A stretch of 64,000 bases of DNA, from positions 20,990 through 84,989 of the forward strand of contig JAUCBJ010005279.1 of assembly GCA_032718475.1 (NCBI GenBank). Direction: 5' to 3'. The stretch comes from Nemertoderma westbladi (lineage: Eukaryota > Animalia > Xenacoelomorpha). The position numbers and the translations under genes are program-made. Below, piece after piece: positions 2,059 to 56,209 of this stretch; position 1 is the stretch's first letter; every line of letters begins with the position of its first letter. The notes under the pieces were generated by a model. The model was not told the DNA's origin. It worked only from the letters and a program-made list of their open reading frames with translations, and did no database searches.

Positions 2059-3947
2059 TATATGGAAGAGACGGTAACAATACCTGCAATATCTTACTGT
2101 AAAGTTTGTGAATCAAATCATAAATCCGACCTTCTCACCAAAACAGTAAACTCTAAGTAAGCGAATATATTGCAGTATCGATCTCTTATAACCGGTGAGG
2201 CAGAAAACAGTCTACGAGCAGACAAACTTCGATAAAACAAAACCCCGCGCAGCGAATCCTAAAATCAGGCTGACTCACTGACGGACTAAGGGGCTCGTAT
2301 ACTTTGCCGCGGTGTGATTTATATGGTTGGGCGAAAGGGACGCTAGCTAGGTACAGAGGCAGAGATTTGGAGATGTCTAACTAGCGGGCAAAGCACAGTA
2401 AGGACAAAAGTTAATTTTATATATATTTTGAGGTGTAAATAATTTCTAACGCGCGCGTGTTAATTCTGAACGGTCAAAAGCAGTTTTGCTCCTTCACATA
2501 TATAATTACTGGGTACGGTGTGCATTTTACGAATATTCTAATTTTGTAACTTGTAGGTCCAATACTCACGAATGATAAGGTTCCTTCCCCTCTTGCGTAT
2601 TTCCAGGACTCAAATTCAGGCATAAAGTTAATACTACGCCCAGAATTCGGCAATTTTAGGTACCAGGTCTCTAATACTGAGAAGAGATGTGTTAGTTTAC
2701 TACAGTAGGCGTACAGTTACTAATAGCTATCCTGGCGTCCTATCTAGAATTTTAGTCACCTAGGTAGGCTGGGTAACTTCCTATTAGGGCGTTGGCGGGG
2801 ACACGGTAGATGTTAGTATATCCCTAATAGCCTCAATTTATTTGCGCCTAGTTGTAAACTGCCCTACCGCCTGAACGGTACAATCCTAATTCAGGTGAAA
2901 ACACAACGACCCTCCTAGCCTACAAGTTCTAATGCAATGGACACCGTTGTACGGTAAATAGTCACAGACGCACCTGTACTTAGCAAGAGTTAAGCGTACA
3001 GTTTGCTGCACCCTAACCATTTGTATGCCTTGTACCGGTGTGCCTACGTCCTATTTGCGTACTAGTATCTCTGCTCTCTCCCTCCCCCGTAGGAATGTGA
3101 AGGTCTACTGTGGTTTTTTTCTGAATCAAGACAGTACAGTCCCTAAGATGTAATTTTAGGCTCACAGCGTGTCACTACTTCTACCTTTTGATCTTTGGTC
3201 TTACGCTTAGGTAGCAAGGCGTCGAACGCTGTCTAACCTTTCAGGCGATGGGCGAATAACTCAAGATGGTATTGCGGGTTGTCTCTTGTCTACATTCCCC
3301 TGATGTTCCCGTTCATTGCTGCGGCCCGATCTCTAGCTGGCCATCCTGTTCCTAAAGGTGTTCACCGTAGTGAATCATGGTGAAAAGAAAGGCAGATAGC
3401 GGTATTTCTGAATTTATTGCAGATAATAGTACAAAATGTAGTCTGAAAACTAATGACAGAATAAACAAGAAATATAGATTGAAATAATCTGTGTACGCTT
3501 GAATGATAACTAATGAACAAATCGCACCTTTATATAGCAAATTTGTGCTGCAATCAATCGAGAAAATTCTCGATTGTTCTATAGGTTCTAACAGGTTTTT
3601 AAAGATAGCTATTGGTCCAGCTAATATATAACTTGCACGACATTGGTTACAATCAAATAACTACAGTCTCATTGGTACAGACAAATGCAATTTAATTTGT
3701 AGCGGTCAATTTAAATGAGTTGAAATTCTGTACAAAAAATAATTCGCACTTACTAGGATTCGAACTCAATACCTACTACACATAAAATTTCCAACGCTCT
3801 ACCGACTGAGCTACTGAACCACTTGACCAATAGGCGTACAATAGATATAACAAATACAAATGAGGACTCAAAGCAATCTTTTACAAAGTTAATTCGAATA
3901 AAATAAAATTTTGAAAATCCACGGCATTTAGGGAATATAATTCTATA
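2059..3947 (-). repeat. 3' LTR of element A (sense ends TATAG...CCATATA)
   Basis: Near-identical to 16703-18591 (at least 7 substitutions seen by eye). Confidence 0.97.
3734..3820 (-). ncRNA. tRNA-derived Pol III cassette (A box, B box, T6) in U3 of LTR A; second copy 18378-18464
   Basis: Sense GGTTCAG-TAGCTCAGTCGG-TAGAGC (intact D arm GCTC/GAGC)...GAGTTCGAATCC...TTTTTT; no acceptor or anticodon stem. Confidence 0.7.
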
Positions 3948-16691: not shown

Positions 16692-16702
16692 CACATTCCT
16701 AC
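16692..16702 (-). promoter_or_regulatory. Non-tRNA primer-binding site of A (GTAGGAATGTG)
   Basis: Abuts the 5' LTR; lacks TGG; perfect 11-nt complement at 17733-17743 within the LTR. Confidence 0.75.
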
Positions 16703-18591
16703 TATATGGAAGAGACGGTAACAATACCTGCAATATCTTACTGTAAAGTTTGTGAATCAAATCATAAATCCGACCTTCTCACCAAAACAGTAAACTCTAA
16801 GTAAGCGAATATATTGCAGTATCGATCTCTTATAACCGGTGAGGCAGAAAACAGTCTACGAGCAGACAAACTTCGATAAAACAAAACCCCGCGCAGCGAA
16901 TCCTAAAATCAGGCTGACTCACTCACGGACTAAGGGGCTCGTATACTTTGCCGCGGTGTGATTTATATGGTTGGGCGAAAGGGACGCTAGCTAGGTACAG
17001 AGGCAGAGATTTGGAGATGTCTAACTAGCGGGCAAAGCACAGTAAGGACAAAAGTTAATTTTATATATATTTTGAGGTGTAAATAATTTCTAACGCGCGC
17101 GTGTTAATTCTGAACGGTCAAAAGCAGTTTTGCTCCTTCACATATATAATTACTGGGTACGGTGTGCATTTTACGAATATTCTAATTTTGTAACTTGTAG
17201 GTCCAATACTCACGAATGATAAGGTTCCTTCCCCTCTTGCGTATTTCCAGGACTCAAATTCAGGCATAAAGTTAATACTACGCCCAGAATTCGGCAATTT
17301 TAGGTACCAGGTCCCTAATACTGAGAAGAGATGTGTTAGTTTACTACAGTAGGCGTACAGTTACTAATAGCTATCCTGGCGTCCTATCTAGAATTTTAGT
17401 CACCTAGGTAGGCTGGGTAACTTCCTATTAGGGCGTTGGCGGGGACACGGTAGATGTTAGTATATCCCTAATAGCCTCAATTTATTTGCGCCTAGTTGTA
17501 AACTGCCCTACCGCCTGAACGGTACAATCCTAATTCAGGTGAAAACACAATGACCCTCCTAGCCTACAAGTTCTAATGCAATGGACACCGTTGTACGGTA
17601 AATAGTCACAGACGCACCTGTACTTAGCAAGAGTTAAGCGTACAGTTTGCTGCACCCTAACCATTTGTATGCCTTGTACCGGTGTGCCTACGTCCTATTT
17701 GCGTACTAGTATCTCTGCTCTCTCCCTCCCCCGTAGGAATGTGAAGGTCTACTGTGGTTTTTTTCTGAATCAAGACAGTACAGTCCCTAAGATGTAATTT
17801 TAGGCTCACAGCATGTCACTACTTCTACCTTTTGATCTTTGGTCTTACGCTTAGGTAGCAAGGCGTCGAACGCTGTCTAACCTTTCAGGCGATGGGCGAA
17901 TAACTCAAGATGGTATTGCGGGTTGTCTCTTGTCTACATTCCCCTGATGTTCCCGTTCATTGCTGCGGCCCGATCTCTAGCTGGCCATCCTGTTCCTAAA
18001 GGTGTTCACCGTAGTGAATCATGGTGAAAAGAAAGGCAGATAGCGGTATTTCTGAATTTATTGCAGATAATAGTACAAAATGTAGTCTGAAAACTAATGA
18101 CAGAATAAACAAGAAATATAGATTGAAATAATCTGTGTACGCTTGAATGATAACTAATGAACAAATCGCACCTTTATATAGCAAATTTGTGCTGCAATCA
18201 ATCGAGAAAATTCTCGATTGTTCTATAGGTTCTAACAGGTTTTTAAAGATAGCTATTGGTCCAGCTAATATATAACTTGCACGACATTGGTTACAATCAA
18301 ATAACTACAGTCTCATTGGTGCAGACAAATGCAATTTAATTTGTAGCGGTCAATTTAAATGAGTTGAAATTCTGTACAAAAAATAATTCGCACTTACCAG
18401 GATTCGAACTCAATACCTACTACACATATAATTTCCAACGCTCTACCGACTGAGCTACTGAACCACTTGACCAATAGGCGTACAATAGATATAACAAATA
18501 CAAATGAGGACTCAAAGCAATCTTTTACAAAGTTAATTCGAATAAAATAAAATTTTGAAAATCCACGGCATTTAGGGAATATAATTCTATA
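16703..18591 (-). repeat. 5' LTR of element A
   Basis: Direct repeat of 2059-3947; TATATAAAGG near 18171-18180 (sense) with upstream CCAAT motifs. Confidence 0.97.
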
Positions 18592-22886: not shown

Positions 22887-23165
22887 CTGTTAAAAAAAAT
22901 CATTTTATTTATATTTTATTTCATGTAAATCATAGGAAATAAAAGCACACAATGTAAGTTACAGTATGTGTAATTGTCATCCTTCTCCGGTGGAAAATAA
23001 CGCATATAATTACTCACAAAAAAATAAAAGTGCAACCTTTCTATTGATTTTCGTTTATTGTTTTGGTTGGAATACCGTAACGTGCCACTTTAACCTGCTC
23101 CTTTCTCTAAATTGGTAATTTAACATTTAACAATTTAACACAAAACATTAATTTCAAACGCTTAA

Positions 23166-25571: not shown

Positions 25572-26127
25572 TGTGACGGGATCCAGGAAGGATCCCGATT
25601 TATCCGTTGTTTAATTCACTCGTCCCCGCCGTGTGTATGAAAGGTAAAATAGGGAATCCGTGTCGTTCGTTGTATATATTGACTGATATAGATATATAGG
25701 GTATATAGATATAGGTGTAACTGATATAATGTTGTCGTATACAGAAGGCGGGATACGGTAATTAAAGTCCCGGTCCTTCCCTAGCTAAACTATCTAACCT
25801 AAGCTAGCACCAATATTGCACTGAGATAACTGAATGGAAAGATTACTGCCAACTGGCTATATTGCACGGTTGGCCTTGTTACTCTACCTAATCGATGCCT
25901 TTCCCCCCCTGATTGGTTGATACCCTTGTTGGCGCCCCGTGGAGTGTTCCCGTTCACTCCTCCTGTTCTCTCTGGGTTAGGGGTTTGGCCCCTGACCCTT
26001 ATTGTGTGGTTCTCCTTCCCATTCTCATTGGGATGGCACGAGTTGGTTAATTACCCAATCTCGTGGCTCCCAATATTACTTATCGGCTTAACTTTATGGG
26101 GTGTTAGCGGGATTGAATAAGCTAACA
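25572..26127 (-). repeat. 3' LTR of element C
   Basis: Direct repeat of 55654-56209 (3 substitutions seen). Confidence 0.97.
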
Positions 26128-26835: not shown

Positions 26836-29382
26836 CTATCTGTTCCTCTGGGGATAGTTCCCCCTGGCGTCCCCTTCCCTGGGTCGTTTCTTGGTTACCA
26901 CCGCTCCTCTGGGATCCGCTTTCTGCTTTCGGACCTTCGCCGCCACCTCCCTGCTGATTCCGGTTGTTGGCTCCTTGGGCGCTGGTGTTATTAGTGCCGG
27001 ATACCGCTTCGCAGGTGGCCCCTCAGAGTGGCCCGGTTGTCTCCCTCTGGTGGCGTCCCATAGGATCATCTTTATTGCTTGCGGTACGTGCTCCGCCAAG
27101 AAATCCCTAAACTCCCTTCGGTTCTGTGGCGTCCACCTATCCAAATATCATTGTGTGTTCATCACTCCAGCGTATGATGCCGCCGTTGCTACCTCTTGGT
27201 AGGTAAACGGTAGCCTCCGCTTTATGATTTCCATGTGAGTCTCCTGATTGATAAGGAAGAAACCCCACTTGAACTCCTGGGCCTTCATGCGCTGGCGCGT
27301 CATAGCCCCGACGTCGGCCCACTCCTCGAATCTTGCGAACTTTTCCTCGTCGTCCATCCAATCGCACTGGCGTCCGTAGTGTCCTCGAAAGTGGCACTTT
27401 GGACATCGGTTATGTAACCGTGGACACGCCCCCATCCTGTGGCTCGGCTCTCAGCAGTAGAGACAAAAGGTTCCCTTCTGGAACCGGTACAAGCAGCTCC
27501 TTTCCTGGTGGGTCTGTCTCCCACAGTAGTCGCAGCCGAGTACCAATGTCTCCCGTCCCACCTCGTCCTTCGTCCCAAGCGATCTCCGCGGTCTGTGGAG
27601 TCGCTGGTAGGCAAACTTCTCCACATTAGTGTCTCTATCTACGTCGATCTCCCCGCCCCTCTCGGGCATCGTCTCCCCGAATACTATCCGTGGTGCCGTC
27701 CCCGGTTGCTCGCCCAACCTGATAGTGCTCCCCGCGAAATCCATCGCCGGCTCCTCGTGCACCCAGGTCCGCTTGCCGGATCTGTTCCAGAAGGCCCTCG
27801 CCCCACTGGCCGTCACCACCCTTCCGCCAACCCAGTCCGTGTCCGAGTGGCCTATCCTCTCGATGGGCGGCATCTCTCCGAACTCGTCGTCGTCCTCCTC
27901 CTCTTCTCGCAGTGGTTCCAACCTCGGTATCCTGGTGGACCCACTATGTCCCTTCCCGCCTTGGCTCTCGCCCGTAGCTCTCCATCCCTCTAGCTCCCTC
28001 AACTTCCTCGGCGGTTGTTCGCCCTCGGCGCCCGCTGGTATGGGCATCTCTTGCAACCCCGACGTCGACTGTTTCGGCGATCCCACCGTCCATCCCAATT
28101 CTCGCCCTAGAGACTCCCCCGAACTCCCTGACGAAGTCCAATAAAGTTCGTCTAGGCCCGCCTGTTCCTCGAAGCCGTAACTCTGCGTCCTCGCCTCCTC
28201 TTCCCTCTCCTCTGCTTCTATCCTCTCCCGTCTAGCGACTTCTTCCAGTCGCTTTGCTTCTCGTCTGTCCGTCTCTAGCTGCTTCCATCTCTGATACGGC
28301 GTATCTGTCTCCCCGTCTACCAGATGTCGGCTGTTGTAGTACACCGACTCGCCCTTCAGCCCCGGGTGGTCTACCAGACCGTCGAAGGCCGTTTTAAAGG
28401 CTCTCCTGTAGCTTAGGTGTGATCCCGATAACAGAAATGCCCCTGGTTCCCTCTCGATAACCACGGTCATAAATAAGTTAAGCAAACTTATCATCATCCA
28501 ATCTTCCTGCAAGATATATCGCTTCTGATATACCTTTATCGCTCCTCTGCGGAACTGATATACCTCTTGCTTTCCCGGTCTCGCTCCCCACTTTAGCGAG
28601 TTCGCTAGTTCTGCTCCGTATTCTTCCCTGAACTTCCCCCAGTCCATCGGTTTGTGGCATACGAGCCCCAATAGTTGGCCCATTGCCACCGCCCCGCACT
28701 GGCCTGTGTTTCCGACTACCCCCAACCCATCCGGTGCCGTCATAGCCATAAAGACCTTCTGCATGTCCAGGAGGTTGGTGGCGTCCGGACCGATGATTCT
28801 CTCCGCATCCTCGCAAATTGCCGATCCCACTTTCGTCGTCGACTTCTCTCTTACCAAGACTTGTACCGCTTTCGGTAACCGATTTAATTTCAGCCCGTCC
28901 TTCTTCCCATATGTTCCTAGATCGAATAAGAAAATGTCCCCATTTGGCGCGGCCAAATGTAGGAGTATGGTACTGGCCGACCCCGCTGATCCTCGTCTCG
29001 AACCCGCCTCGTCTTCCACGGTTCCCTCGTCGTCTAGGATCATATATCCTCCCCTGTTGACGGACTCTATGAATCTCTTCCAGTCCTTCCTCGGTGATTC
29101 CCTCGGGTACTTCGGAATCCCGAACCTAGCCTCGTCCCCTTTCACCACATTGTGGAAGTGTTGGAAGATCGCGTTGTCCACCGACGGCGTCCCATAGGTC
29201 CCAACCAGCCGCTGTTCGTGCATCTCTCGGAAGTGATCCTGCAGCGCACGTGCCGCGTGACCCCTTTCCAACCTCTCGTAGTATCCTCTCGTCTTCTCTT
29301 CCAGATGCCTCTCGGTGAAATCCACCAGTATCTCCTTTCCTCCCGACTCCGCCTTTCTCTTTCTGATCAACTTACTCGCCAT
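26836..29382 (-). pseudogene. Accessory ORF3 of C: DEDDy (WRN/RNase D/EXD-like) 3'-5' exonuclease + three CCHC knuckles; two premature TGA codons
   Basis: ExoI YMILDDEG, ILLHLA..IFLFDL, LPKAVQVLV..KVGSAICED (ExoII), QKRYILQED (ExoIII-like); CDYCGRQTHQERSC, CLYC*EPSHRMGAC, CPKCHFRGHYGRQC. ORFs 27451-29391, 27148-27435 and 26836-27144 share one frame (849 codons from ATG 29382). Confidence 0.8.
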
Positions 29383-29874
29383 TCCGAACACTACACTCGC
29401 TCACCTGCAAGGTGGTGCCTTACCAAGGCGCAATACAGATGAGTGATGTATCTAGGATGTTCTGTACGGTTCGATAATGGCCTATTTCTACTTAACTGCG
29501 CCTTTTAACCTAAATTTATTACTAATTAATCTTGAAGCTAGTAAATGAGCCTAATTTACAATTTCTGTCCGTTACATTTATTATGTTCTAGAACAACTTT
29601 CCTTGTGTTGCCATTATTTTGTAACTTTCAGCCCTATTCTATTTATTTATCTATTTATTTTAATTCTACTGTCCTACTACTTACTATTACCTATGGATTA
29701 TTCTATTCTTTAATCCACATTCTGGCCTACTCTGTGGGCCTGTGCAGTACAGCAGTATGCGTCGTGTGGCCACACGATTTACCCAGCTGTATTCATATGC
29801 CCCCCTCTCGCTACTAATGCTACTTACTGCTAACTAATATCTATATCTTATATACCCTTCTACCTCTTACTCTC

Positions 29875-30630
29875 TCTCTCTCTAACTAACGGTACTACGT
29901 ACCCTCTAACTCTTCTCTAACTAACTAGCGGTACTTACGTACCCTCTAACTCTAACTCTTCCCTAACTAACGGTACTACGTACCCTCTAACTCTTCTCTA
30001 ACTAACTAGCGGTACTTACGTACCCTCTAACTCTCCTCTAACTAACTAGCGGTACTTACGTACCCTCTAACTCTAACTCTTCTCTAACTAACGGTACTAC
30101 GTACCCTCTAACTCTAACTCTTCTCTAACTAACGGTACTACGTACCCTTTAACTCTAACTCTTCCCTAACTAACGGTACTACGTACCCTCTAACTCTTCT
30201 CTAACTAACTAGCGGTACTTACGTACCCTCTAACTCTCCTCTAACTAACTAGCGGTACTTACGTACCCTCTAACTCTAACTCTTCTCTAACTAACGGTAC
30301 TACGTACCCTCTAACTCTAACTCTTATCTAACTAACGGTACTACGTACCCTCTGACTCTAACTCTAACTAACTAGCGGTACTTACGTACCCTCTAACTCT
30401 AACTCTAACTAACTAGCGGTACTTACGTACCCTCTAACTCTCTAACTAACTAGCGGTACTACGTACCCTCTAGCTCTCTAACTAACTAGCGGTACTACGT
30501 ACCCTCTAACTCTCTAACTAACTAACTAACTAGGTACTACGTACCTCTTAACTAACTTCTCTAACTAGGTACTACGTACCTCTTAACTAACTAACTAACT
30601 AACTAGGTACTACGTACCTCTTAACTAACT
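29875..30630. repeat. Tandem array of 19 units (~35-42 bp), each with a GGTAC-(T)TAC-GTACC hairpin and CTAA runs
   Basis: Counted 19 cores from 29891 to 30606. Confidence 0.95.
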
Positions 30631-30768
30631 TCTGCCTATTAACTGCGTACCTACTATGTACTATTATTTTTATTTTATTTTTATTTATTTGTGTGGGAGG
30701 GGCCTCTCACCCTCAATCCCACCCCCCTCAGTCCAAACTTGGACGACTAAAAAACCTCTAACTCCAAT

Positions 30769-34393: not shown

Positions 34394-34522
34394 TATAGAA
34401 TTATATCCTCATAAAAGCCGTGGATTTTCAAAATTTATTTTTGTTGGAATAAACTTGTTATAAAGATTACGTTAAGTTCTCATTTGTATTTACCATTGCT
34501 ATTTGTACAAGGTTACTCAAGT

Positions 34523-34606
34523 GGTTCAGTAGCTCAGTCGGTTATGTGTTGGAAATTTGTCCAGAAGGTATCGTGTTCAAATCCTAGAAGGTGCGAATTG
34601 TTTTTT
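34523..34606 (+). ncRNA. tRNA-derived A box / B box / T6 cassette in U3 of LTR B; second copy 48806-48889
   Basis: TAGCTCAGTCGG (34530-34541), GTGTTCAAATCC (34573-34584), TTTTTT (34601-34606). Confidence 0.65.
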
Positions 34607-34739
34607 GTGCTGAATTTTCAATTAATTCAAATTAACCTCTACGATTTAAATTGATAGTAACAATGTATGATTTGACTGAATCATTGTACGAATACATTAT
34701 ACAATGTACGATTTAAATTGCATTTACCCGAGTGATTAA

Positions 34740-34905
34740 CCAATATAATTGCAGTTATATGATAGTAACCAATGTCGTGCAAGTTGTGAGTTGTTGGACC
34801 AATGGTTATCTTTAAAAACCCAATATAATTATAGAATGTTCTCGATTGTTTGCAGCACAAATTTGCTATAAAAGGTGCAGTTTCGTTCATTAGTTATTCA
34901 ATCTC
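34740..34905 (+). promoter_or_regulatory. Probable Pol II promoter of LTR B (several CCAAT motifs + TATAAAAGG at 34867)
   Basis: Motifs are positionally conserved in A; transcription start inferred near 34890-34900. Confidence 0.55.
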
Positions 34906-36376
34906 AATCACACAAAAACACAATTATTCTGAGTTATCTGATATTTGTTTATTCTGTCATTAGTTATTTCAGATTACATTTTGTATTAGTATTAATCTGC
35001 AATAAAATTCAGAAATACCGCTATCAGCCTTTCTTTTCACTATGATTCACTACGGTGAACACCCTTAGGAACAGGATGGTCGGCTAAAGATCGGGCCGCA
35101 GCAGTGAACGAGAACATCGGGGGAATGTGACCAGGAGACCACCCACAACATCTATTAGAGTTATTCGCCCATCGCCTGAAGGTTAGACAGTGTTCGATGC
35201 TTTGCTACCTAAGTGTAAGACCTAAGATCGACGGTAGGAGCAGCGACACACTGTACGCCAAAAGTTAAATTAAGATCTGTATTATCCTGATTCTCGGAAA
35301 ACCAGCAGAACCCCTTCATATTCCTACGGGGGGAGAGGAGGACAGAGGAAAGTTAGAGATACCTGTACGCAGATAAGACATAGGCACACCAGTACATGGC
35401 ATGTAAATTGATAGGGTGCAGCAAAACTGTACGCCTAGCTCATTGTCAGGTATAGGTGCGCTGTGTGTCTTGTCAGCAGTACACGGTATTTGTTGCTTGC
35501 GTTGGAACTTGTAGGCTAGGAGAGGGTTGTTGTGTTTTCCCTGAATTGTGATTATACCATTCAGGCGGTAGGGCAGTTTACATGCTAGGCGAAAATAAAT
35601 TGAGGCTATTAGGGATACTAACATCTACCGTGTCCCCGCCAACGTCCTGATAGGAAGTTACCCGGACTACCTAGGTGACTAAAATTCCAGATAAGAGCCA
35701 GGATAGCTATTCGTAACTGTACGCCTACAGTAGTAAACTAACACATTTCTTCTTAGTATTAGGGACCTGGTACCTAAAATTGCCGAATTCTGGGCGTAGC
35801 ATTAACCCTGGAAATACACAAAAGGGGAAGGAGCCTTATCATTTGTAAGTATTGGACCTACAAGTTACCAAAATATTAGAATATTTGTAAAATAAACGCC
35901 GGACCCAGTAAATGAGATTATATGAAGGATTAAAACCAATTTTGATCCAAGAATTAACAAATTCGCGTGTTTAGGAATTATTTACACCTCAAAAAAATAT
36001 AAAATAATTTGTTCACTCTGCTGCTTTGCCTGCTAGTTATATTTGTAGCTAGCGTCTCTCTCACCCACCATATAAATCACACCGCGGCAAAGTATACGAG
36101 CGCCCTTAGTCCGTCAGTGAGTCAGCCCGATTTTAGGATTCGCTGCGCGGGATTTTTGTATTACCGAAGTTTGTCCGTTCGTAGACTGTTTTCTGCCTCA
36201 CCGGTTAAAAGAGACCAATACTGCGATAGTTTTGCTTACTTAGAGTTTACTGTTTTGGTGAGAAGGTCGGATTTATGCTTTGATTCACAGACTCTATAGT
36301 ATGATATTGCAGGATACGTATTTGGGTTTCTCACATCAATAGGAATGTGTACCTTTGTTCGTGTCTCTTCCATTTA

Positions 36377-36389
36377 GTAGGAATATGAA
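36377..36389 (+). promoter_or_regulatory. Non-tRNA primer-binding site of B (GTAGGAATATGAA)
   Basis: Abuts the 5' LTR; perfect 13-nt complement TTCATATTCCTAC at 35315-35327. Confidence 0.75.
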
Positions 36390-37180
36390 TTACTGAACTA
36401 CGGTTCAGTAGAACAAAATTATTTGAAAATTTTGTATTTTGAGGTAAAAATTTGTATTTGATTAGCTAAGTGCTAATTTTTTGAAATAAAATTTTGATTT
36501 GAAACGCGTAAAACATTTGGAATTAAATACCAGTGTTTAAAAGGGTTTAAATACCATATTGTACCGGTACAAAAAATTTTCGTAAAAGTAAAACCAAACT
36601 CTTTTGTTTTTCAGGATTCAGAGCTCATTTCTAGACTGTAACGAGAGCAAGACCGTGTTTCACGAGTTTGGGAGATAGATAACTCAACAATTTTGGTTGG
36701 GAAAATCGCACTTCGTCCGCAGCGTTGGAAACGGAAAGGTTCACGTTCGGTTTGTATGTGGGAATCTGTTTTTCTGGAGAATTATTGGAGTGGGTAAGTT
36801 CGAAAAGTTGCATTAATCAGTTAGGCATTACCGTATTAGTTAAAATTATTGTGGGTTCCACTGTCTCAAGTATTTATGCATTCCGTACGATTTCTTTGTT
36901 TATTGCTGAATTAGTCCGTAATTATTTGTGTTAATTTACATTTTGATAACGTATATCGTTATCCGATTTATTGTTATAAAATTGGCCGTTAGGCTAATTT
37001 TATTATATACTTATACCGTGACATTATTTGCTGTAAAATTGGCCGCTAGGCTAATTTTATCCATTTGCTATAAAATCGGCCGGTAGGCTAATTTTATATG
37101 ACTGTAATTAGTACCGTTAGATATAAATACGGTAAACTCGATACTTTAACACTCACTTTACTTGACTTACAACTACTGAA

Positions 37181-40100
37181 ATGAGTGACAAACAAGACTA
37201 TACGAAGAATACACCTACCGACTATGACTCATGTGACGCGAAGTCAGCAGCGGAAGAACAACAGGGGAAGACACGTGAGCCTACCGAACCTACACCGTGT
37301 GCGTCACCAGTACATCCAACGGGAGTACCGGATGCCGTAGTACGAGGTGACGGCAGGACCGAGGACTTTCTAACTGTTCCGCAACCTAGATATAGGGAAA
37401 CGGACATGGTAAGTTCAGCAGGAAGCCAGGACAGCGTAGTTAGAAGCGTCGGAGGATACATGGCGCATATTACCAAGAGTATTGGAGAAGGACAACGCAT
37501 ATTAGGCGAGTTGACCGCTCCGATGTCCCGATTCGAGTTCTACACTCTACAGGTAAGAGTACAAAGTAGAGTACATAAGTCCGTAGATAACTTAGTCAGC
37601 CTACAAGATCTAGCTAGACAAAGACAGGATGCGGACACGCAGTATCGAATCCTCGAGAAACTAATGATCGCTAGGGAGAAACTGATTCAGTTTAAGACGA
37701 CCGTTAGGCAGATACAACAAGAGCAAGCGGATCAGTTATTAGGTGAGTCGGTTTCCGACGAGTTGTTACAGCCCGAAGAGGAACAAGAACTGTATCGGCT
37801 GGATGGACAACTGAAACGCCTGACGGATCACTTACGTATGTGCGGCGAGGACGTTGGAGATTGGGAAACCGTACCGGAAGCTACGAAGGAAACTTCACTC
37901 GCACCAATCGAGCTGGCACCAGGAATACTGGATCAATCGCTGGTGAGTATTCGTAGCGAAATCGGCGAGGGAAGTATGGTCACGTCAGAAGTTGCTCGAC
38001 AACAGCAACAGTTCTACAGACAACGACGACAAATGGAGGAACAAGCTCAACTTCTAGTGATGCAGGCAGCAGTAGAGGAAGAGAAGCTACGCATTGCGAA
38101 TTTAGCGAGAATCTCTCATCTACAGGAACAAGCTGAATTAGAAGCAGCTGAAGTAGAACGGTTAGAGTTAGACATTGCCCAACAAGCGGCGGCAGCCGAG
38201 TTAGTGCAACGAACTGCAGCAGCCGAGTTAGAGCGACAAGCGGCAGCGGCAGCGTCAGAGTTAGAGCGACAAACGGCAGCGGCGGAGTTAGAAAGGAAAA
38301 GGTTAGTTTCAGAAGCACGAGCCGAAATGAAAACATGGCAAATAAAAGCCCAATCAGCTATACGACAAGCGGAGTTTGAGGCGCAACGACAACAAACGGA
38401 ACAACGAGAGAAGGGAGTTAAACTTCGTTTCGAACTCGAGAAGAAGGTGAGAGAATTAGCGAACGCCGAGGAAGATCTGGATCAAAAGGCCCGCGATCGA
38501 TCGATGAGATCTCGAGACGGACATGATTTGGACCAGATAGAGGTAAGACATCGCCAAATTCAGGAACGGAAGAAGGAAGGAAGCGTAGGAGCACCCGGAC
38601 GGGAACGACAATTAGTAAAAGACTTGTGTCAACGATTTCCACAAGTAACTCCTATGTTTGCACCGATTATGACTAAGGAACCTGTTTCGATTGCCGGTAG
38701 TAGTAATATTTCTCCTATCCATGGTGCGACGGAACACAGGTTGGTAATTCCGGACAAATTCATACCGCCAAGAGCAACGTCGTTGCCTATTTTAAAAGTC
38801 AAGGTAAGTAACCCACCGAATACCGATCGTAGTAGTTTATTGACCAGACCTGCGCTACTGACAACTAAACAGGTGAGTCCACCTTCGACACCGAAACCCG
38901 TTACGCACTACACTTACCCAATGACGTTTCGGCCTACAAGGCCAGTCGATTCAAACGCTACCACACGACCACCGTTTAAAAAGCGTACATCGCAATCTAC
39001 GACTTCGAGGAAGACTTGTGAGCCTACCGAACAACGGAGACCAGTGGATACGCGACCGTTTAACCAGATTACATCGCAATCTACGACTTCGAGGAAGACT
39101 TGTGAGCCTACCGAACGACGGAGACCAATAGACGATGTTCCGAAGCGGAACGTTAGAATTCGAACGACGCAATGGACGCGAGCACGTCGACCACCGTATC
39201 CAGGTGACAGTAGTACTTCGAGTGAATCGGATTACCCGAAACGCGAGGTATTTAGAACAGGGGCGGCCGATGAATACAAACGCGAGCGTTCAGACAACTC
39301 CTTTGTAGACAATCCTCCACGAAATACACCAACACAGAACGCGTTACAACCAACAGACGCAATTAGTACACAACAGTTCGCCAACATTCTGCGACCAGTT
39401 GTTAACAAGTTGGCTCAGATTGAGGAACGTCTGGAGGAAGTTCAAACGGATAGTTCAAGGAACACCGAATTCGAACACAATAGACACCCGAAGGATCAGC
39501 AAAGACCAATACCTTCGAGAAACACACCGTATCAGGGAAAAGCGCCAAGAAGGGACATCAACCAGATTACCAACCAAGGACGCGAAACTCTGAACGTTGC
39601 CGAGGAAATAGCGAAATTCGCAGCTAGACAAGGACTACCGGTGCAACAACCACCTAAGTTTTCCAGTAGCTCAAAACACTGGCACACTTACGTAGACTAT
39701 ATCGAATCTCAGATCGCTGTGTGCGCCTTTACATCACGGGAGAAGTTTAATTACCTGCTTCAAACGTTGTCGGGAGAACCCAAACGTTTGGCGGAGACCT
39801 TCGTTGGTGTACCGGACGCCTTCGAACTAGCGTACGATCGCTTAACTTCGATCTACGGAGGTACAGTCAGCATGGCCAGGTCAGTGATAGAGGAACTCTG
39901 TAAGGGAGGGGCTATTACTAAACCCGTCGACTTATTGAAACTAGCTGACGAAATAAAGAACGCTATCACTACATTAAGATCTATTGGACAGCTTGACTAC
40001 GGAAATACCCCTACAGTCCTATTAAAGATCATAGGACGACTCCACCATCGACTTCGTCGGGAGTGGAGGAAGATCGAATACCAGCGGGAAGAGCGAGGTG

Positions 40101-43100
40101 GATTCTTAAAACTGGAGGATGTATACCTTTTGATATTCAGGGAAGCAGTGGTAGAGACACGATCTAACTACACTGACCAACACATCGTAGCCGAAGGAAT
40201 CACCTTGCCATCCTCAAACCGACAAAAACCCCAGACAACATCCACCAAGACGGCCACTTACGCCACACCGACAGAAACACGACAATTCTCGGACGGTAGT
40301 AGGGTATCTGCGCCCATTGGAATAAAACAGACTAGACAGCAACTCAGTACAGACTTCAGCGGCTGCCAATACTGCGAGCATTTAGGCAAGCGGTATACCG
40401 GTCACAAGTTGAGAGGTTGTCGACAGTTTCGCGAGTTAAACTCGGAAGAACGACGGCTGCAGATACGGCCATTGGACTCTTGTTGGCGGTGTACGCGACA
40501 CGGACACGTCCGCAAAGATTGCCCAAATACCGACACTTGTCCATCCTGTGGACGCAACCACGACGGTCTGCTCCACACAGACAGCCACACGCCGACAAAA
40601 CGCTTCGCCAGGGAACACCCGGAAGCTGCAGCAAAATGCAACACCGCGTATAATAATCGAGAATCGAAAACGACTCCAACTTTCGTGACACATATTAAGG
40701 ATTGCTTCTCAGAACAATCCGGATCGTCGGACGAAGAGTCAGAAGACGACGACGTATATTCGGATGGAGACAAACAACCATCGATCGCGCTTCTGACAAC
40801 TGACCAACTAAAAGGTTTCAGTGTAATTCCGATTAAGATTACTGGCACAAAAGGGAGCAAGAGAATCTACGCTATTCTAGATTCAGCCTCATCTCACAGC
40901 TACGTGGATGAGAAGGTAGCTGATGTCGTCACCGATCTCAGACAAGGTAAGCATGTTAGTTACACCGTAAGTAGTATGCACGGACAACGTGCAATACCAG
41001 TGACGCGAGTTAAGTTAAACTTAGACACTCTTCTTCCGAAATCGCAACATAGCGAGAAGGAGAGGTCTTTGTTGCCCTTCAAGGATTTAACCTTTGCGGC
41101 CACAAAAGACTTTAGTATCTTACTAGGTCCAGTGCCGGAACAATCCTTGGAGGACCGTAAGTACTTCAGACACCTTGGTGTACCTGAATGTCCTGTCAAT
41201 TATAGATCGGTAGCAATGCTGATCGGGACAGATCAATTCAACCTACATCAAGTGTGGGAAACCAGACCATCGGTAGTCGTAGCAGGAAGTGCATACGCCT
41301 GCAGAACGCCGATAGGTTGGTTTACTCGAGCGCCTGTGCGCACACTAGACATAAGTGATGAAGAGGATGAAGTACAAAGTACATGTAGTTTATTAACTAC
41401 AAATTCAATTCATTCCTTTTCACACGACCGAGACTATACTACCTTGCGTACAAAACACAACAAAGTGACCAGTACGACGTGTGTAACAAATACCATAAGT
41501 CACAAGGAGCAGCAAATCCACCAGGTGAGTTTAGAACTTGGGGAGAAGACGAGTCAGCCAGAGATTCCATCGACGACAGATGATAACGCCGGAAGGCTTG
41601 CGAGTCTATCTACACCAATAACCTCAACAATGCCCGTCGATATAGATGACGACACGTTAAGAAATCATCAAGTGGAACAAGCTGCACTGGACAAAGAATT
41701 AACGGAGAAGACTATCAGGTGGTTAGAACAAGATACAGCTGAACCTGGTAGCTACGAACCGTGTATGTCGGAACAAGAGAAACAATCTTTAAAGATCATG
41801 GAAGATACTATCCGCCAGATGAAAGACGGACATTATGAGGTAGGGATGTTATGGCGCAGCCAAAGTCCCAAACTTATTAACAATTATCCGCTAGCTTTAA
41901 GACGCTTAAAATCAATATGGCAACGTCTATTATAGGACGAGAAAGCCCATCTGCAGTATAATACCCAGATGGAGACGTATTTGACCAAGGGGTACGCTAT
42001 CCGAATGACTAACCCAGAGATTGTAACAGACCAGACATACTACTTACCACATCACTACGTGAGACATCCCGACAAACCAGACAAAGTACGTGTAGTCAAT
42101 GACTGCGCGGCTCTGTTTGAGGGAATGTCCCTCAATAGTGAGTTAATGGATGGACCAAACATGAATAATTATCTTATGGGGGTGATTATGCGCTTCCGTC
42201 AGCGTCAAGTAGCCTTTACTTGTGACGTCGAAGCTATGTTTCACCAAGTGAGAGCGTTAGAGCAAGACAGAGACAGTTTGAGGTTCCTCTGGTACCCGGA
42301 AGGAGACTTGAGTCTACCACCGGCGACTTACCAAATGCAAGTTCGCGTTTTCGGTGCCAGGGACAGCCCAAACTGTACGATGTATGCCCTAAAACAAGCC
42401 GCTAGGGATCAGAAACATATATATGACCCAGAGATAATCAAGATCGTAGAACGTGACTTTTACGTAGACGACTGATTACAGAGTTGTGACACAGTAGAAC
42501 GTGCTATAACAGTAGCACAATTACGGGACTGTTTAGTGGGCGGAGGTTTTAACCTCACCAAATTCGCCTCAAACAGTGCCGAATTGGTAGACTCATTCGG
42601 AACGACTGAGCGTGGAGGTGGTGACATTGACCTAGAGTTCGAACCACTACCGACGACCAAGGTGTTGGGGCTCTTTTGGGACCCAAACACGGACAACTTT
42701 CGAGTGAAGGTGAGACTGGACACTCAAGAAAACACTCTGACAAAGAGGTCCTGCTTGTCAAAATTGAGTCGATTGTTCGATCCATTAGGATTCATCAGTC
42801 CAATAATACTGCAAGCTAGTATTTATATGCGCAGTATTTGGAAGGATGGACTGACATGGGACGAGCCGATCTCATTTGAACAAGTGGACTTATGGAAAAC
42901 CTGGGAGGCACAGTTATCTTCACTAGAGGATTATTCCATACCCAGAGTCTACTTTCCATTACAAACGACGTTTCCTGACAACTTGGAATTACATTGTTTT
43001 TCCGACGCCAGTGACAACGGCTTTGGTGTGGCAGCGTACTTGCGCAGACAAGTAGACTCAGACGAGTTCGATGTGTCGCTCATTACTTCTAAGGCTAAGA

Positions 43101-45883
43101 CCATGCCTACTAAGTACATGACGACACCACGCCATGAGCTACAAGCAGCAACTCTGTCAACTACCATTGTAAACCTCATACAGACTGAACTACAGTCAAG
43201 TTTACAGATATTTTATTGGACTGACGCGACGTTGGTTTTATTTTACATAAACAACGACACACTTGAATTCAAGACGTTCGTAGCTAACCGTCGCGCAGAA
43301 ATTCTAGACCGTTCAATAAAGGAAGATTGGCGACATTGTCCCGGACCACAAAATCCAGCTGATATTGCGTCGCGAAGAATGATGCCTGAGGAATTCTGTA
43401 AACCGGAGAACAAAGAATTTTGGCAACACGGACCACAATTCTTGCAGAAATAGACACAAGATTGGCCACCGTTATACGACAACAAGTCTAACACCATCCC
43501 TAAGGACGCCGAAATAAAGAAACCAAAAAAGGGGAAGGCAAAGAAAAGGACGACGGCTAAACTCAGGAAAAAACCGAAGGCGAAATGGAAAGCGATAACT
43601 TCCAAAGTCAAGAAGGGAAGACTTGCGAGCCTTTCTACACCAGACATATCGCCAGACGGTCGACCAGACACGTTACTAGAAGGTCAACCAGACGTTTTGC
43701 CAGACATGTCACAAGACGTTTCGCCGGATGTTCCGCGAAACATTTTACAAGACATATCACAAAATATTCTACCAGACACTAGTAACGTATTGACAGATAG
43801 TAAAGCCGCAGTTTCCCTATTGGAGCGGCCTTCTGTTGACAAACAACCAGACGCATTACTAGACAGTCGACTAGACATTTTGTCAGAAACATCACAAAAT
43901 GTTCTACCAGACATTAGTAACGCATTGACAAATAATAAAGCCGCAGTTTCCCTATTGGAGCGGCCTTGTATTGACGAACAACCAAACTTGACACTCTTGA
44001 GTAATCATAAGCACAGTGCAACCTCATGTATTACAGATGTGGGTAGTACCTACGATAATGTAAATACAGGTGTTACTTTGCGCTCAAGAGACATACCAAA
44101 CTTGCAACCTATGGTGAGACCTGGGATTAATATCGGCAGAAAAATAAGTTTACCGAAACCCAGTGACCCCATAGAGTTCAAACCACCATTAACGATCGAC
44201 TTACAAAGTACTGACAATCAAGGTAAGAAAACGAAGAAGGACAAATTACTCGTAGACCCGGACGGATCAACAGTCAACAAGGGAATACTTACCGGCGGAC
44301 CCGTGGGCCCTTCTAGTAAATCAAAACCTTTCAAATTCTCCATTGACTTACCTGATGACGTCACAAATACTTACGTCGACCGTATTGTAAACCTAACAGA
44401 TTCTTGGACAAACGCTTGCCGAAAATTAGCGTGGATTGTACGTTTTGTACAATACGTTAAAGGCAAACGCGACTTTACACGTCGACTTACATTGACTGAG
44501 ATTGACAGGTGTGAAATTAAATTAATTCGCCATTATCAATTGCGATATTTTACGCGCGAATTCACATCAATAAATCAAGGTCAACCAATCAAGTCGTCAC
44601 CAATATTGAGTTGGAGTCCGATAATTTATAATGGCTTAATTTGTCATAAATCTCGGCTTCAAAACATTGACCTTAACACAAACTTTAGATACCCAATAAT
44701 AATACCGCAGCATCACGAATTACAACGTGCAATGATACTGGACGCACATTTACATCTGAAACACGCTGGAAGACACCACTGTCTTTCTTACTTACGTACT
44801 AGATTTGTATTAATTAGACCCAGTAAAGCGTTAAGTTCAGTGATGCGTACGTGTATTATTTGTAAAAAGGTACACTCTAGAATAGGTACCCAAGAAATGA
44901 GTGAACTTCCACAAGCACGACTTCAAGCATTCAGACCACCTTTTACAGAGACTGGAATTGATTGCTTTGGTCCCATACATACGAAACGTGGACGTATACT
45001 AGTAAAACGCTGGGGACTGATTTTCACATGTATGTCCAGTAGGGCAGTTCATATTGAACGTGTGATGGATCTTTCCACCAACGCGTTTATACTAGCATTG
45101 CGGCGATTTATCGCTAGACGCGGACTAGTGAAATGCTTGTACTCAGACCAAGGTACAAACTTTGTTGGTGCTCGAAATGAAATTGCTAGAGCCTTCAAGA
45201 AATTAGATCATGATCAAATCTCAGACGAACTACATCCTTACAAGATTGTTTGGAAGTTCAATCCTCCAGACAGTCCATGGAGAGGCGGAGTCTGGGAGAG
45301 ACTGATAAGATCTATCAAAACGGCCATGGCAAAGGTCATTCCAGTAAACCACATTTTGACAGACGACCAACTGACTACATTGTTTGTTGAAATCGAGGCA
45401 ATACTAAATACTAGACCAATAGTATTAGTACCCGATGACAAACAATCCCAATTTGCTTTAACACCGGCACACCTGCTAATGCAGGCACCGACAATATTGA
45501 CGCCTATTTCTATTCCAATAGAAGGCAATAGCTATGGTAGAAAAGCGTGGAAAATCACGCAACTACTAGCTAACAAATTCTGGGAAATATGGCAAAACCA
45601 TTATTTGCCCTCTATTTCTGCCAGAACAACATGGTACAATAACACCCACGCATTAAAGCCGGGAGATCACGTGCTGTTAGCAGAAGTGAATCTAAAAAGA
45701 TGCTTTTGGATAACAGGTGTCATTTTAGCCACACATCCATCTATGGATGGAGTGACAAGAACTGAGACGGTACGGACAATTGACGGTCGTACAGTAGACA
45801 GACCGACTCAACGTCTCGTACTTCTTGAAGAGACTCGAAACGAGTCTGGAGATTACAAATCTCCAACGAATGTTAGTAAATAA
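37181..45883 (+). pseudogene. gag-pol: gag-pol polyprotein of B; nonsense codons ending at 41935 and 42475, frameshift near 43450
   Basis: Same PR, RT, RH and IN motifs as A; ORFs 37181-41935, 41969-42475, 42536-43453 and 43697-45883. Confidence 0.95.
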
Positions 45884-46294: not shown

Positions 46295-48246
46295 TTTGGG
46301 ATCAAAAAGTGAGTATTTTAGACTCACAGCCAGTTTAGCCCAAAATCGTTTTTATTTTTGGCAAAAAATTTAAATAAGAAACAGTGTGTCGCTAAAGAAA
46401 CCTTAGATCTTAGGCTATGGGTAGGAGGTTAGAGCGCTGTCGAGCCCAAAGGGCAGACGAAACTCTCACGTCTCCTCACAACTAACCACAAACTCTGTTG
46501 TATTCCCTCTAGTAGCAATGATTATGTAACCATTACACCTCTAATTATGGAGAAGGAGATACATGGAGAGCCGAGATGGGGATATGATATCCAAGAGGAA
46601 GCGGCAGCGCCATTCGAACGATTTGGAGCTAAAGACTACACTATATTTGGTATAAAGGAATTATCAGAAAGTACAGCGAAGCTAGCAAAGATAGCAATGC
46701 CTTTACTCGAGCAGGATTTAGCATATTTCGAGACGTGTATCTTCGCTGTGCGGGATCTCTTATCGAAAGACCATCTATGTTTACATTGTTACCCTATGAA
46801 GGAGAACGTATCGTGGAGATTACTGAAGAATCACGGCAGACGCGCGCGCCTATCGGTCACCTTAGTGACGATTTCGAAGTAACGACGATCATTGGTGATC
46901 CTCTAGAGGAACTTCTTGAGATCGAAAGGAACCTCCCGAAGAAATCTCAGACGGAGATTTGACAACTTGAAGCAACAGATGCTGTAGTTTGCATACAACC
47001 TTCAGAAACCTATCAACCCATAGATCCAGATGATTATGACTATAGTGTGGGAGGAAGCGCTCGACCTATTGGAGATCTTATATATGAGCGAGTGTGGTAC
47101 CCTGCCAACACTATGTGTGGTAAATGTGGCGTCGCTGGACATCATTCGACGAAGTGCAGTGGAAAGCACATCACTACGACTCAACTAATCTGTGGATGGT
47201 GTGGAGATCAAGGGTCACATACATTTTATACTTGCTGGAGATTTATGGCTCAATGTACGTATTGCAATATCAAGGGACATCGAGCATCTGAATGCCAACT
47301 ACGAGACATACCTTATGAACACGAATCTGTAAAACTCGTAAGAAAGCTATTCGACGATTGGGAAGATTTGGCTGACGAACACGTATCGGCACAAAGGAGA
47401 AGATTCCCGATGAGAGCGCATCTTGGATTTTGGGCGGTAAATCCACAAACTATGATGTCTGAAGGATATATCTCAGCTATGCCTCAATATGACGAACTTA
47501 TAGAGGTAGTTGATATTTTGCCTCATGACAGCGGATTCCGAGTGGTGCGCGAGTATCTGTTACAGATTCACCCAGACAATAAGAACACATGGAATTTTCA
47601 GAAAGTCGTAAATCGTATCACGTATGGTGAGTTCGATCGTTTCCGAACGGAGAAGCGGAACAAGGGAGCTTGGTTAACCGTCGCATGGGCGTACCGAGCC
47701 GCGTTCTATCACAAACGTATACGAGCGAGCGTATTCGAGGAAGAGGAGATCCTAGAGGCGACAAATATACCAGCCACTCCGGTTGCGCCGTCTGCACGTC
47801 ACCCTCGGGAGGACGGACAGGGTAGGATCATAAAGGTTCAGAAAGTGAGCCAACAATTGAAGAAGTCTATTAATATAGAAGAACGCAAGGGAGTCAAGCC
47901 GACTATTCGAATTACTAGGGATACGGTATCGCTTCCTAGAGAACCAACAGGAGGATCGGGACATACACCAGCTGATCAAAAGGGGGCAAAAGTTTCTCTT
48001 GGGTCTGCGTCGTCCGCTTCTCGTGCATTCCCAGACGTTCTACCAACCGTAGTGACAACTGATCGGTCACGAGGAATTGGTCGAGGATTTGGGACGCCTA
48101 ATAGGCAAATTTGTGAGGAAACGGTAGTACCTCCTCTCAACGTCCCAAGTAAACCAGTGACTCGCCCCATTAGTCCCATATCGCGAGCAAAGTCACCTGT
48201 GCGCAGTTTTTGAGGACGCGGCAGGGCTCGATCTACAAAGCGGTAA
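46295..48246 (+). pseudogene. Accessory ORF3 of B: triple CCHC knuckle protein, disrupted
   Basis: ORFs 46547-46882, 46735-46962 and 47047-48213 are orthologous to ORF3 of A; TGA in place of Arg codons at 46960 and 48211. Confidence 0.8.
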
Positions 48247-48676: not shown

Positions 48677-50678
48677 TATAGAATTATATCCTCATAAAAG
48701 CCGTGGATTTTCAAAATTTATTTTTGTTGGAATAAACTTGTTATAAAGATTACGTTAAGTTCTCATTTGTATTTACCATTGCTATTTGTACGAGGTTACT
48801 CAAGTGGTTCAGTAGCTCAGTCGGTTATGCGTTGGAAATTTGTCCAGAAGGTATCGTGTTCAAATCCTAGAAGGTGTGAATTGTTTTTTGTGCTGAATTT
48901 TCAATTAATTCAAATTAACCTCTACGATTTAAATTGATAGTAACAATGTATGATTTGACTGAATCATTGTACGAATACATTATACAATGTACGATTTAAA
49001 TTGCATTTACCCGAGTGATTAACCAATATAATTGCAGTTATATGATAGTAACCAATGTCGTGCAAGTTGTGAGTTGTTGGACCAATGGTTATCTTTAAAA
49101 ACCCAATATAATTATAGAATGTTCTCGATTGTTTGCAGCACAAATTTGCTATAAAAGGTGCAGTTTCGTTCATTAGTTATTCAATCTCAATCACACAAAA
49201 ACACAATTATTCTGAGTTATCTGATATTTGTTTATTCTGTCATTAGTTATTTCAGATTACATTTTGTATTAGTATTAATCTGCAATAAAATTCAGAAATA
49301 CCGCTATCAGCCTTTCTTTTCACTATGATTCACTACGGTGAACACCCTTAGGAACAGGATGGTCGGCTAAAGATCGGGCCGCAGCAGTGAACGAGAACAT
49401 CGGGGGAATGTGACCAGGAGACCACCCACAACATCTATTAGAGTTATTCGCCCATCGCCTGAAGGTTAGACAGTGTTCGATGCTTTGCTACCTAAGTGTA
49501 AGACCTAAGATCGACGGTAGGAGCAGCGACACACTGTACGCCAAAAGTTAAATTAAGATCTGTATTATCCTGATTCTCGGAAAACCAGCAGAACCCCTTC
49601 ATATTCCTACGGGGGGAGAGGAGGACAGAGGAAAGTTAGAGATACCTGTACGCAGATAAGACATAGGCACACCAGTACATGGCATGTAAATTGATAGGGT
49701 GCAGCAAAACTGTACGCCTAGCTCATTGTCAGGTATAGGTGCGCTGTGTGTCTTGTCAGCAGTACACGGTATTTGTTGCTTGCGTTGGAACTTGTAGGCT
49801 AGGAGAGGGTTGTTGTGTTTTCCCTGAATTGTGATTATACCATTCAGGCGGTAGGGCAGTTTACATGCTAGGCGAAAATAAATTGAGGCTATTAGGGATA
49901 CTAACATCTACCGTGTCCCCGCCAACGTCCTGATAGGAAGTTACCCGGACTACCTAGGTGACTAAAATTCCAGATAAGAGCCAGGATAGCTATTCGTAAC
50001 TGTACGCCTACAGTAGTAAACTAACACATTTCTTCTTAGTATTAGGGACCTGGTACCTAAAATTGCCGAATTCTGGGCGTAGCATTAACCCTATGCCTGA
50101 ATTTGAGTCCTGGAAATACACAAAAGGGGAAGGAGCCTTATCATTTGTAAGTATTGGACCTACAAGTTACCAAAATATTAGAATATTTGTAAAATAAACG
50201 CCGGACCCAGTAAATGAGATTATATGAAGGATTAAAACCAATTTTGATCCAAGAATTAACAAATACGCGTGTTTAGGAATTATTTACACCTCAAAAAAAT
50301 ATAAAATAATTTGTTCACTCTGCTGCTTTGCCTGCTAGTTATATTTGTAGCTAGCGTCTCTCTCACCCACCATATAAATCTCACCGCGGCAAAGTATACG
50401 AGCGCCCTTAGTCCGTCAGTGAGTCAGCCCGATTTTAGGATTCGCTGCGCGGGATTTTTGTTTTACCGAAGTTTGTCCGTTCGTAGACTGTTTTCTGCCT
50501 CACCGGTTAAAAGAGACCAATACTGCGATAGTTTTGCTTACTTAGAGTTTACTGTTTTGGTGAGAAGGTCGGATTTATGCTTTGATTCACAGACTCTATA
50601 GTATGATATTGCAGGATACGTATTTGGGTTTCTCACATCAGTAGGAATGTGTACCTTTGTTCGTGTCTCTTCCATTTA
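48677..50678 (+). repeat. 3' LTR of element B
   Basis: Direct repeat of 34394-36376. Confidence 0.97.
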
Positions 50679-55559: not shown

Positions 55560-55644
55560 CTCGCTGGTGATTGGTGGAGTTCAGCTAGCTAGGGCAGCAG
55601 TTGGTTTTAGTTACTTTTACGGTTTAACTAGGGCGGCAGCTCGA

Positions 55645-55653
55645 TTTAATTAC
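55645..55653 (-). promoter_or_regulatory. Non-tRNA primer-binding site of C (GTAATTAAA)
   Basis: Abuts the 5' LTR; complement TTTAATTAC lies in the LTR at 55840-55848. Confidence 0.6.
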
Positions 55654-56209
55654 TGTGACGGGATCCAGGAAGGATCCCGATTTATCCGTTGTTTAATTCA
55701 CTCGTCCCCGCCGTGTGTATGAAAGGTAAAAAAGGGAATCCGTGTCGTTCGTTGTATATAATGACTGATATAGATATATAGGGTATATAGATATAGGTGT
55801 AACTGATATAATGTTGTCGTATACAGAAGGCGGGATACGGTAATTAAAGTCCCGGTCCTTCCCTAGCTAAACTATCTAACCTAAGCTAGCACCAATATTG
55901 CACTGAGATAACTGAATGGAAAGATTACTGCCAACTGGCTATATTGCACGGTTGGCCTTGTTACTCTACCTAATCGATGCCTTTCCCCCCCTGATTAGTT
56001 GATACCCTTGTTGGCGCCCCGTGGAGTGTTCCCGTTCACTCCTCCTGTTCTCTCTGGGTTAGGGGTTTGGCCCCTGACCCTTATTGTGTGGTTCTCCTTC
56101 CCATTCTCATTGGGATGGCACGAGTTGGTTAATTACCCAATCTCGTGGCTCCCAATATTACTTATCGGCTTAACTTTATGGGGTGTTAGCGGGATTGAAT
56201 AAGCTAACA
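55654..56209 (-). repeat. 5' LTR of element C
   Basis: Direct repeat of 25572-26127. Confidence 0.97.

Follow-up and report, generated by a model that had tools for sequence, protein, structure and literature searches.

BEL/Pao retrotransposons have been described as tRNA-primed elements whose replication is poorly understood (PMC8742986). The 64,000-nt stretch of DNA analysed here, which we call the window, contains three BEL/Pao LTR elements: A on the minus strand, B on the plus strand and C on the minus strand. The primer-binding site (PBS) of each begins with GT, not with the TGG of a tRNA-type site. The locus raises the question of what primes minus-strand DNA synthesis in such elements. 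A preliminary description of A and B had proposed that they prime themselves, independently of tRNA. Judging from sequence comparison, we reach the same reading for all three elements and their relatives, and put the probability of self-priming in some form at about 0.88.

Three elements and the match between PBS and LTR

The LTRs of the three elements and the coding region of B are located as follows:

16703..18591, minus strand: 5′ LTR of element A, 1889 nt, 99.6% identical to 2059-3947, with target-site duplication (TSD)
2059..3947, minus strand: 3′ LTR of element A, second member of the repeat pair, with TSD
34394..36376, plus strand: 5′ LTR of element B, 1983 nt, TA...TA ends, 98.7% identical to 48677-50678, 5-bp TSD
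48677..50678, plus strand: 3′ LTR of element B, with a second primer copy at 49598-49610
55654..56209, minus strand: 5′ LTR of element C, 556 nt, TG...CA ends, 99.5% identical to 25572-26127; element with Pfam matches
25572..26127, minus strand: 3′ LTR of element C, second member of the LTR repeat pair
37166..45883, plus strand: gag-pol frame of B, with three in-frame stops and matches to DUF1759, Peptidase_A17, Integrase_H2C2 and DUF5641

These four Pfam families occur in that order in A, B and C, and the top homologues of the window's Pol proteins all carry them. The integrase regions of C and B are 29% identical, and the best database relatives of B or C reach 31–40% identity. Duplications of 5 bp flank A and B. 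All three copies are defective: B by its three stops, A by stops and a frameshift, and C by the insertion of B, which splits it. The polypurine tract before the 3′ LTR is a clear G-run in C and is short and interrupted in A and B. Each element has an extra ORF after pol without a Pfam match (B 46963-48213, A 4772-6220, C 27451-29400); those of A and C have only a short Cys/His-rich stretch in common.

The LTRs of A and B end in TA...TA (34394, 36376, 18591, 16703) and not in TG...CA. Among the relatives described below, spacers of 0–6 nt separate the CA end from the PBS, and in L028 a TA spacer follows a purine tract. The TA...TA ends of A and B may perhaps be retained spacers of this kind.

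The PBS of each element and the LTR segment complementary to it are:

35315..35327, plus strand: predicted self-primer segment of B, 13 nt, contiguous and without intron, exact complement of the PBS
36377..36389, plus strand: PBS of B, starting with GT at the first base outside the LTR
17733..17743, minus strand: predicted self-primer segment of A, 11 nt, exact complement of the PBS
16692..16702, minus strand: PBS of A, exact complement of 17743-17733
55840..55848, minus strand: predicted self-primer segment of C, 9 nt, lying 67 nt after an Inr-like TCAGT
55645..55653, minus strand: PBS of C, starting with GT, complement of 55848-55840

In each case the match lies at offset 0 from the LTR end, with no extension to −1, and the helix is purely Watson-Crick from the first PBS base. 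It is terminated by a non-pair in 15 of the 16 elements considered in this study (A, B, C and 13 relatives). The preliminary description had reported the missing TGG, the exact complements of 13 nt in B and 11 nt in A, and the register required of a minus-strand primer; all of these, including every coordinate, were confirmed, and the 9-nt match of C and the intron-split form described below are added here. The compensatory change that it had noted is real (A36385:T35319 in B, G:C in A), but represents one single event.

When the LTRs were dinucleotide-shuffled 2000 times, the observed match length was reached in 0 cases for B, 1 for A and 9 for C. Complements of 11 nt also arise by chance elsewhere in the internal regions. 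We conclude that the complementarity between PBS and LTR is real and not a product of chance. ARAGORN and Rfam returned no intact tRNA and no known ribozyme over the window, and nothing at E up to 5 on the LTR region of A. Host DNA contigs from four runs of three samples, which are too fragmented to phase PBS with primer, listed no A/B primer joint or intron. One of them carries a PBS variant at position 7; in the table of variants, which also missed the known one of A, the primer shows no matching change.

Several further features of the window were recorded. The U3 of the A and B LTRs contains a degenerate tRNA-like stretch (34517-34614, 48800-48897, 18370-18470 and 3726-3826) that is 81% identical between A and B, confined to these four LTRs and called by neither ARAGORN nor Rfam. 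It holds what we take to be A-box- and B-box-like motifs, followed by a T run. As its first ten bases are identical to the 3′ arm of the hairpin behind the PBS of B, RNA from this stretch could pair just past the PBS. Near the end of the B LTR (36331-36349 and 50633-50651), an inserted second unit resembles an older LTR end joined to an A-type PBS. The unit in the 3′ LTR contains the exact A-type PBS 11-mer, and similar embedded copies are found in host contigs; it looks as if the B LTR had grown by capturing its own PBS. The window also contains a fibrinogen-domain ORF at 22167-22889, a LINE-type RT fragment with DUF6451 at 60608-62330, and two tandem arrays at 59111-60274 and 29815-30633 with units of 142 nt and ∼41 nt. 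The neighbours of the fibrinogen-domain ORF in a protein atlas are for the most part from arthropods, a weak pointer to the host taxon.

Relatives with a putative primer split by a predicted intron

A Pol alignment was used to fetch 79 metagenome loci, of which 57 were checked for LTR pairs and 50 for PBS motifs. These 50 were sorted by patterns that we take to be typical of tRNA-type sites. In a quick integrase tree, the 18 relatives with a TGG tRNA-type PBS all lie on the same side, and B lies on the opposite one, where no TGG site was found. One locus on the TGG side (L055:78-100) has a PBS region without TGG or a GT start. The 22 non-TGG loci were read; three of them have no upstream sequence and the other 19 were scanned. 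A search of viral contigs gave no locus for the Pol of C and one 3′-only locus for the Pol alignment.

The PBS matches the element's own LTR in 13 of the 19 scanned loci. Three of these matches are contiguous and 9–11 nt long (L010, L015 and L049, the last on a contig that may lack the first exon). The other ten, of 10–16 nt, are split across a GT-AG intron (L008, L021, L028, L032, L043, L046, L050, L053, L059 and L061). The invariance of GT and AC in the loci is by construction, as the scan demanded them. For L043 and L061 the second-ranked match was taken, as it sat at the LTR end. No acceptable match between PBS and LTR was obtained in the remaining 6 of the 19 loci. The top matches of L071 and L074 were rejected for want of LTR-end context.

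The predicted introns range from 37 to 423 nt and have the donors GTAAGT (five loci), GTGAG (three), GTATGT and GTTTGT, with pyrimidine-rich YAG acceptors. The acceptor lies 6–7 nt before the primer end in nine of the ten split loci. The predicted intron of L021 (180-217) is only 37 nt long and has a weak donor and an acceptor 3 nt before the primer end. When a small splice-site matrix was trained on these ten loci and applied to A, B and C, no strong conserved intron emerged within or upstream of their primers. As the PBS of the split loci matches a splice joint that is absent from the DNA, the most plausible reading is that it was copied from a spliced RNA primer.

Shuffling with the PBS held fixed attained the observed match in 0–8 of 1000 trials in the 13 loci, and 11 TGG control loci matched their own LTR over only 5–8 nt. 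When the PBS was left free (any GT near CA or TA), a split match of at least 10 nt was found in 11 of 19 loci, a count that includes the otherwise unaccepted L074; in 300 shuffles the mean was 0.59 and the maximum three loci. By the terminal inverted repeats, which are independent of the match, the PBS lies at the LTR end or 3–6 nt beyond it. The 16 elements have 15 different PBS sequences, and each is best matched by its own LTR, with a tie between L043 and L061, which share one PBS. The central claim of the preliminary description, tRNA-independent self-priming, thus gains support well past its single compensatory change, from 16 elements that match their own LTR, ten of them only across the predicted splice joint.

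In a tree of the RT-RH-IN region, one clade (90/91) contains the 13 loci as well as unresolved ones. B is a weak sister of this clade (82/51) and C is unplaced; a single clade with both B and C has a support of 82 and is neither established nor refuted. Contiguous and intron-bearing forms are interspersed, which fits repeated loss of the intron. Self-priming is likely to be a lineage trait of the non-TGG branch.

Three other uses of the match can be weighed on these data. A fragment of a host tRNA, or a small host RNA, could prime while the LTR match is secondary, and parts of PMC6317226 do report half-tRNA priming in some Ty1/copia lineages. It would then have to serve 15 PBS sequences in 16 elements, none with TGG and each matched by its own LTR, and the match across a splice joint would be left unexplained, so we consider it extremely improbable. 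Alternatively, the pairing could be a regulatory RNA structure that acts in PBS masking, packaging or translation while something else primes. The LTRs are indeed rich in predicted hairpins, and the chance 11-nt complements of the internal regions agree with such a role. It is nevertheless a very improbable reading of a Watson-Crick helix that starts at the first PBS base in A, B and C, is closed by a non-pair in nearly all elements and, in 10 relatives, spans a splice joint, with no tRNA site in its place. Finally, retron-like 2′-5′ branching from the G after the helix, an option raised in the preliminary description, agrees with the G that follows the primer in A and B. We give it next to no credence, as only 3 of the 16 elements have a G at this place (8 have C, 4 A and 1 T), and the Pol, which includes an RNase H, is that of a BEL/Pao element.

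Proposed priming mechanism, transcript start and RNA folding

In the mechanism that we favour, by a slight lean over even odds, a 9–13-nt segment of LTR RNA would fold back onto the PBS of the same molecule and prime minus-strand DNA synthesis. The RNA would be cut just after the final AC of the primer, probably by the element's RNase H, in analogy to Tf1. The primer segment would lie in R, a short or a long way behind the start. As the RNA would be cut after the primer, strong-stop DNA would end at the cut and jump to the 3′ R, and the stretch of R lying 5′ of the cut would be rebuilt from the 3′ copy. In the replication of LTR elements, a new PBS arises when the primer is copied during plus-strand synthesis, as set out in parts of PMC7175516 and PMC11042837. 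Here this step would copy the RNA primer into the new PBS, so that PBS and primer would change together and a spliced joint would be recorded in DNA.

In the relatives, the 5′ copy would be spliced and the primer thereby built, while the 3′ copy would keep its intron. This unspliced copy would preserve the intron and would be unable to prime. Trimming of the 3′ R copy, which the preliminary description had listed as a source of the primer, is thus disfavoured in intron-bearing relatives, where that copy would have to keep the intron for it to be inherited. A, B and C would be intron-less forms, as expected when a 3′ copy gets spliced. In the full account, a branch of animal BEL/Pao elements would have replaced the tRNA by a leader primer assembled by the spliceosome; splicing would license the 5′ copy only, the unspliced 3′ copy would regenerate the intron and the PBS would be a DNA record of spliced RNA. 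A, B and C would be intron-less descendants that have to distinguish their two copies by folding, and their primer may lie as far as 420 nt into the RNA. We rate the chances of this account as a whole as even.

The features that bear on folding and on the start of the RNA are:

35329..35348, plus strand: purine arm of B, can pair with the LTR end at 36352-36371, G-U pairs included; its sequence varies among host contigs
36352..36371, plus strand: pyrimidine arm at the 3′ end of the B LTR, partner of the purine arm 35329-35348
36391..36410, plus strand: UACG-tetraloop hairpin abutting the PBS helix, pair probabilities 0.89–0.99 in B
16692-16665, minus strand: counterpart of the UACG hairpin in A, G-U variant kept
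34867..34894, plus strand: presumed TATA box plus Inr-like motif, conserved between A and B, candidate for an upstream start
35001..35006, plus strand: AATAAA upstream of the B primer, conserved in A
35594..35599, plus strand: AATAAA downstream of the B primer, conserved in A
55857..55872, minus strand: segment 5′ of the C primer, pairs with 55622-55636 just past the PBS, pair probabilities 0.86–1.0

The two flanking helices of B comprise 8 and 9 bp with two G-U pairs each. Their stability exceeds that of 495 of 500 shuffles; in A the figure is 429 of 500, and none of the remaining 14 elements reaches the 5% level. The pairing past the bulge at the LTR end, as given in the preliminary description, is hence present in B, but it is weak in A and no general feature. 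In C and L046, pairing extends 25–30 nt on the 5′ side of the primer (matched in 5/500 and 1/500 shuffles, respectively; 2 of 16 tests, uncorrected). As this pairing lies 5′ of the primer, the RNA of these two elements probably starts upstream of it.

For A and B, the putative distance of ∼420 nt between start and primer is derived solely from the TATA/Inr-like motif. A predicted probability of 0.92–0.98 for the primer helix is obtained only with leaders of up to ∼120 nt (B) or 22 nt (A) before the primer; longer ones give 0.13 or less. With a start at the upstream Inr-like site the values are 0.05 for B, 0.00 for A and 0.08 for C; the low values of A and B arise from pairing of the purine arm with a pyrimidine tract upstream of it. 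In C the probability varies between 0.02 and 0.74 with the 3′ end chosen. Thus, in A and B the conserved motifs point to an upstream start and the folding to a start near the primer.

The folding would agree with A and B being literally Tf1-like: a second promoter without a TATA box would give an RNA that begins at the primer or immediately upstream of it, and the 420-nt leader would belong to another transcript. The primer start in both elements also fits YYANWYY, which we take to be the initiator pattern. The conserved upstream TATA/Inr pair and the pairing 5′ of the primer in C and L046 argue against such a start, as does the first exon of the intron-bearing relatives, which would measure only 4–9 nt if the RNA began at the primer. 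We consider this reading unlikely.

The poly(A) signals bear on a further alternative. The downstream AATAAA of B (35594..35599), if used, would place the primer in R. Use of the upstream one (35001..35006) would place it in U5, and a cut in cis would then lose R. Only 5 of the 16 elements have a canonical poly(A) hexamer in the 30 nt that follow the primer end. Self-priming could also occur in trans: a short LTR transcript, spliced and ended close to the promoter, or the second RNA of the particle, would anneal to the PBS of an uncut, unspliced genome and then be cut or trimmed back to AC. Inheritance of the intron would then need no selective splicing, and both the upstream AATAAA of A and B and their poor predicted folding in cis from the upstream start would be tolerated; the hexamers in five relatives, at most 22 nt beyond the primer end, point the same way. 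Such a route requires an extra processing step for which we found no precedent, and the flanking helices of B, C and L046 join LTR RNA to the neighbourhood of the PBS as in one molecule, although they could form in trans as well. We regard priming in trans as rather unlikely, and keep to folding in cis as the preferred mechanism.

Other conserved features lie in the same LTRs. A second UACG-loop hairpin occurs in the leader at 35046-35059 and is conserved in A. So is a second TATA-like motif near the LTR end, with an Inr-like site 35 nt later (36071-36110); contig cover of this part of the LTR is far deeper than over the primer region. Strong splice-donor-like sites 3′ of the primer, at 35845 and 36117 (B LTR 1452 and 1724; A 1379 and 1670), are conserved between A and B and possibly serve a subgenomic RNA.

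Implications and comparison with known systems

If self-priming holds in these elements, each of the three large LTR superfamilies would have evolved it. Building the primer by splicing would couple the onset of reverse transcription to RNA processing by the host, and would account for the persistence of an intron inside an LTR. The element would presumably also be freed from tRNA supply and from silencing by PBS-directed tRNA fragments. Annotation software that expects TGG at the PBS will overlook the non-TGG branch of BEL/Pao or set its boundaries wrongly. The proposed mechanism predicts both the joint and the cut to the base.

The main texts of the Sinbad paper and of a BEL/Pao survey make no mention of a PBS or tRNA (PMC554778, PMC3118150), and the portions of PMC3601003 and PMC8220671 consulted add nothing on BEL priming. 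Our literature search found no account of self-priming, or of a primer built by splicing, in BEL/Pao; an earlier description may exist in subscription journals, Repbase Reports, the primary Tf1 papers or supplements.

Retrons also have self-complementary RNA next to the priming point. The likeness ends there, as the elements described here have no conserved branching G and are LTR elements with an integrase.

The ICTV profile of the Belpaoviridae describes elements of 4.2–10 kb with LTRs of 0.2–1.2 kb and an 18-nt PBS that pairs with the 3′ end of host tRNA-Arg or tRNA-Gly (PMC8742986). The window elements share with that family the LTRs, the TSD, the Gag-PR-RT-RH-IN order and the Pao-specific Pfam families. 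Unlike the profile, they have no tRNA site, and A and B, at ∼16 kb with LTRs of 1.9–2.0 kb (1889–2002 nt), lie outside its ranges, whereas the 556-nt LTR of C lies within. A, B and C are thus BEL/Pao elements by protein lineage and a variant of the described replication type.

Self-priming has been shown for Tf1 and proposed for the Tf1/sushi group, Tcn1 and the TAR lineage of copia, according to parts of PMC7175516, PMC4600332, PMC6317226 and PMC6934838. The TAR lineage of Ty1/copia (Houba, Osr-1) resembles the present case in that self-priming was predicted from sequence, there in a second superfamily; TAR elements are plant copia, and the TAR passages of PMC6317226 describe no intron-split primer.

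The closest parallel is with Tf1/Tf2 of Schizosaccharomyces pombe, Tj1, Tf1/sushi and Tcn1 (Ty3/gypsy), which, as parts of PMC7175516, PMC4600332 and PMC6317226 describe, likewise have a PBS complementary to their own LTR over ∼11 nt and a proposed RNase H cut. The primer of Tf1 consists of the first 11 bases of its RNA, and RNase H cuts between bases 11 and 12 (PMC7175516, in part). The primer described here, in contrast, is possibly internal and is split by an intron in 10 relatives, and the Pol is of Pao type and not of the Ty3/gypsy chromovirus lineage. Members of the Tf1/sushi group have extended RNA structure around the PBS. Here such structure is strong on the 3′ side in B only, is found on the 5′ side in C and L046 and is absent in most elements. 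Taken together, A, B and C are not members of the Tf1/sushi group, yet they likely work alike.
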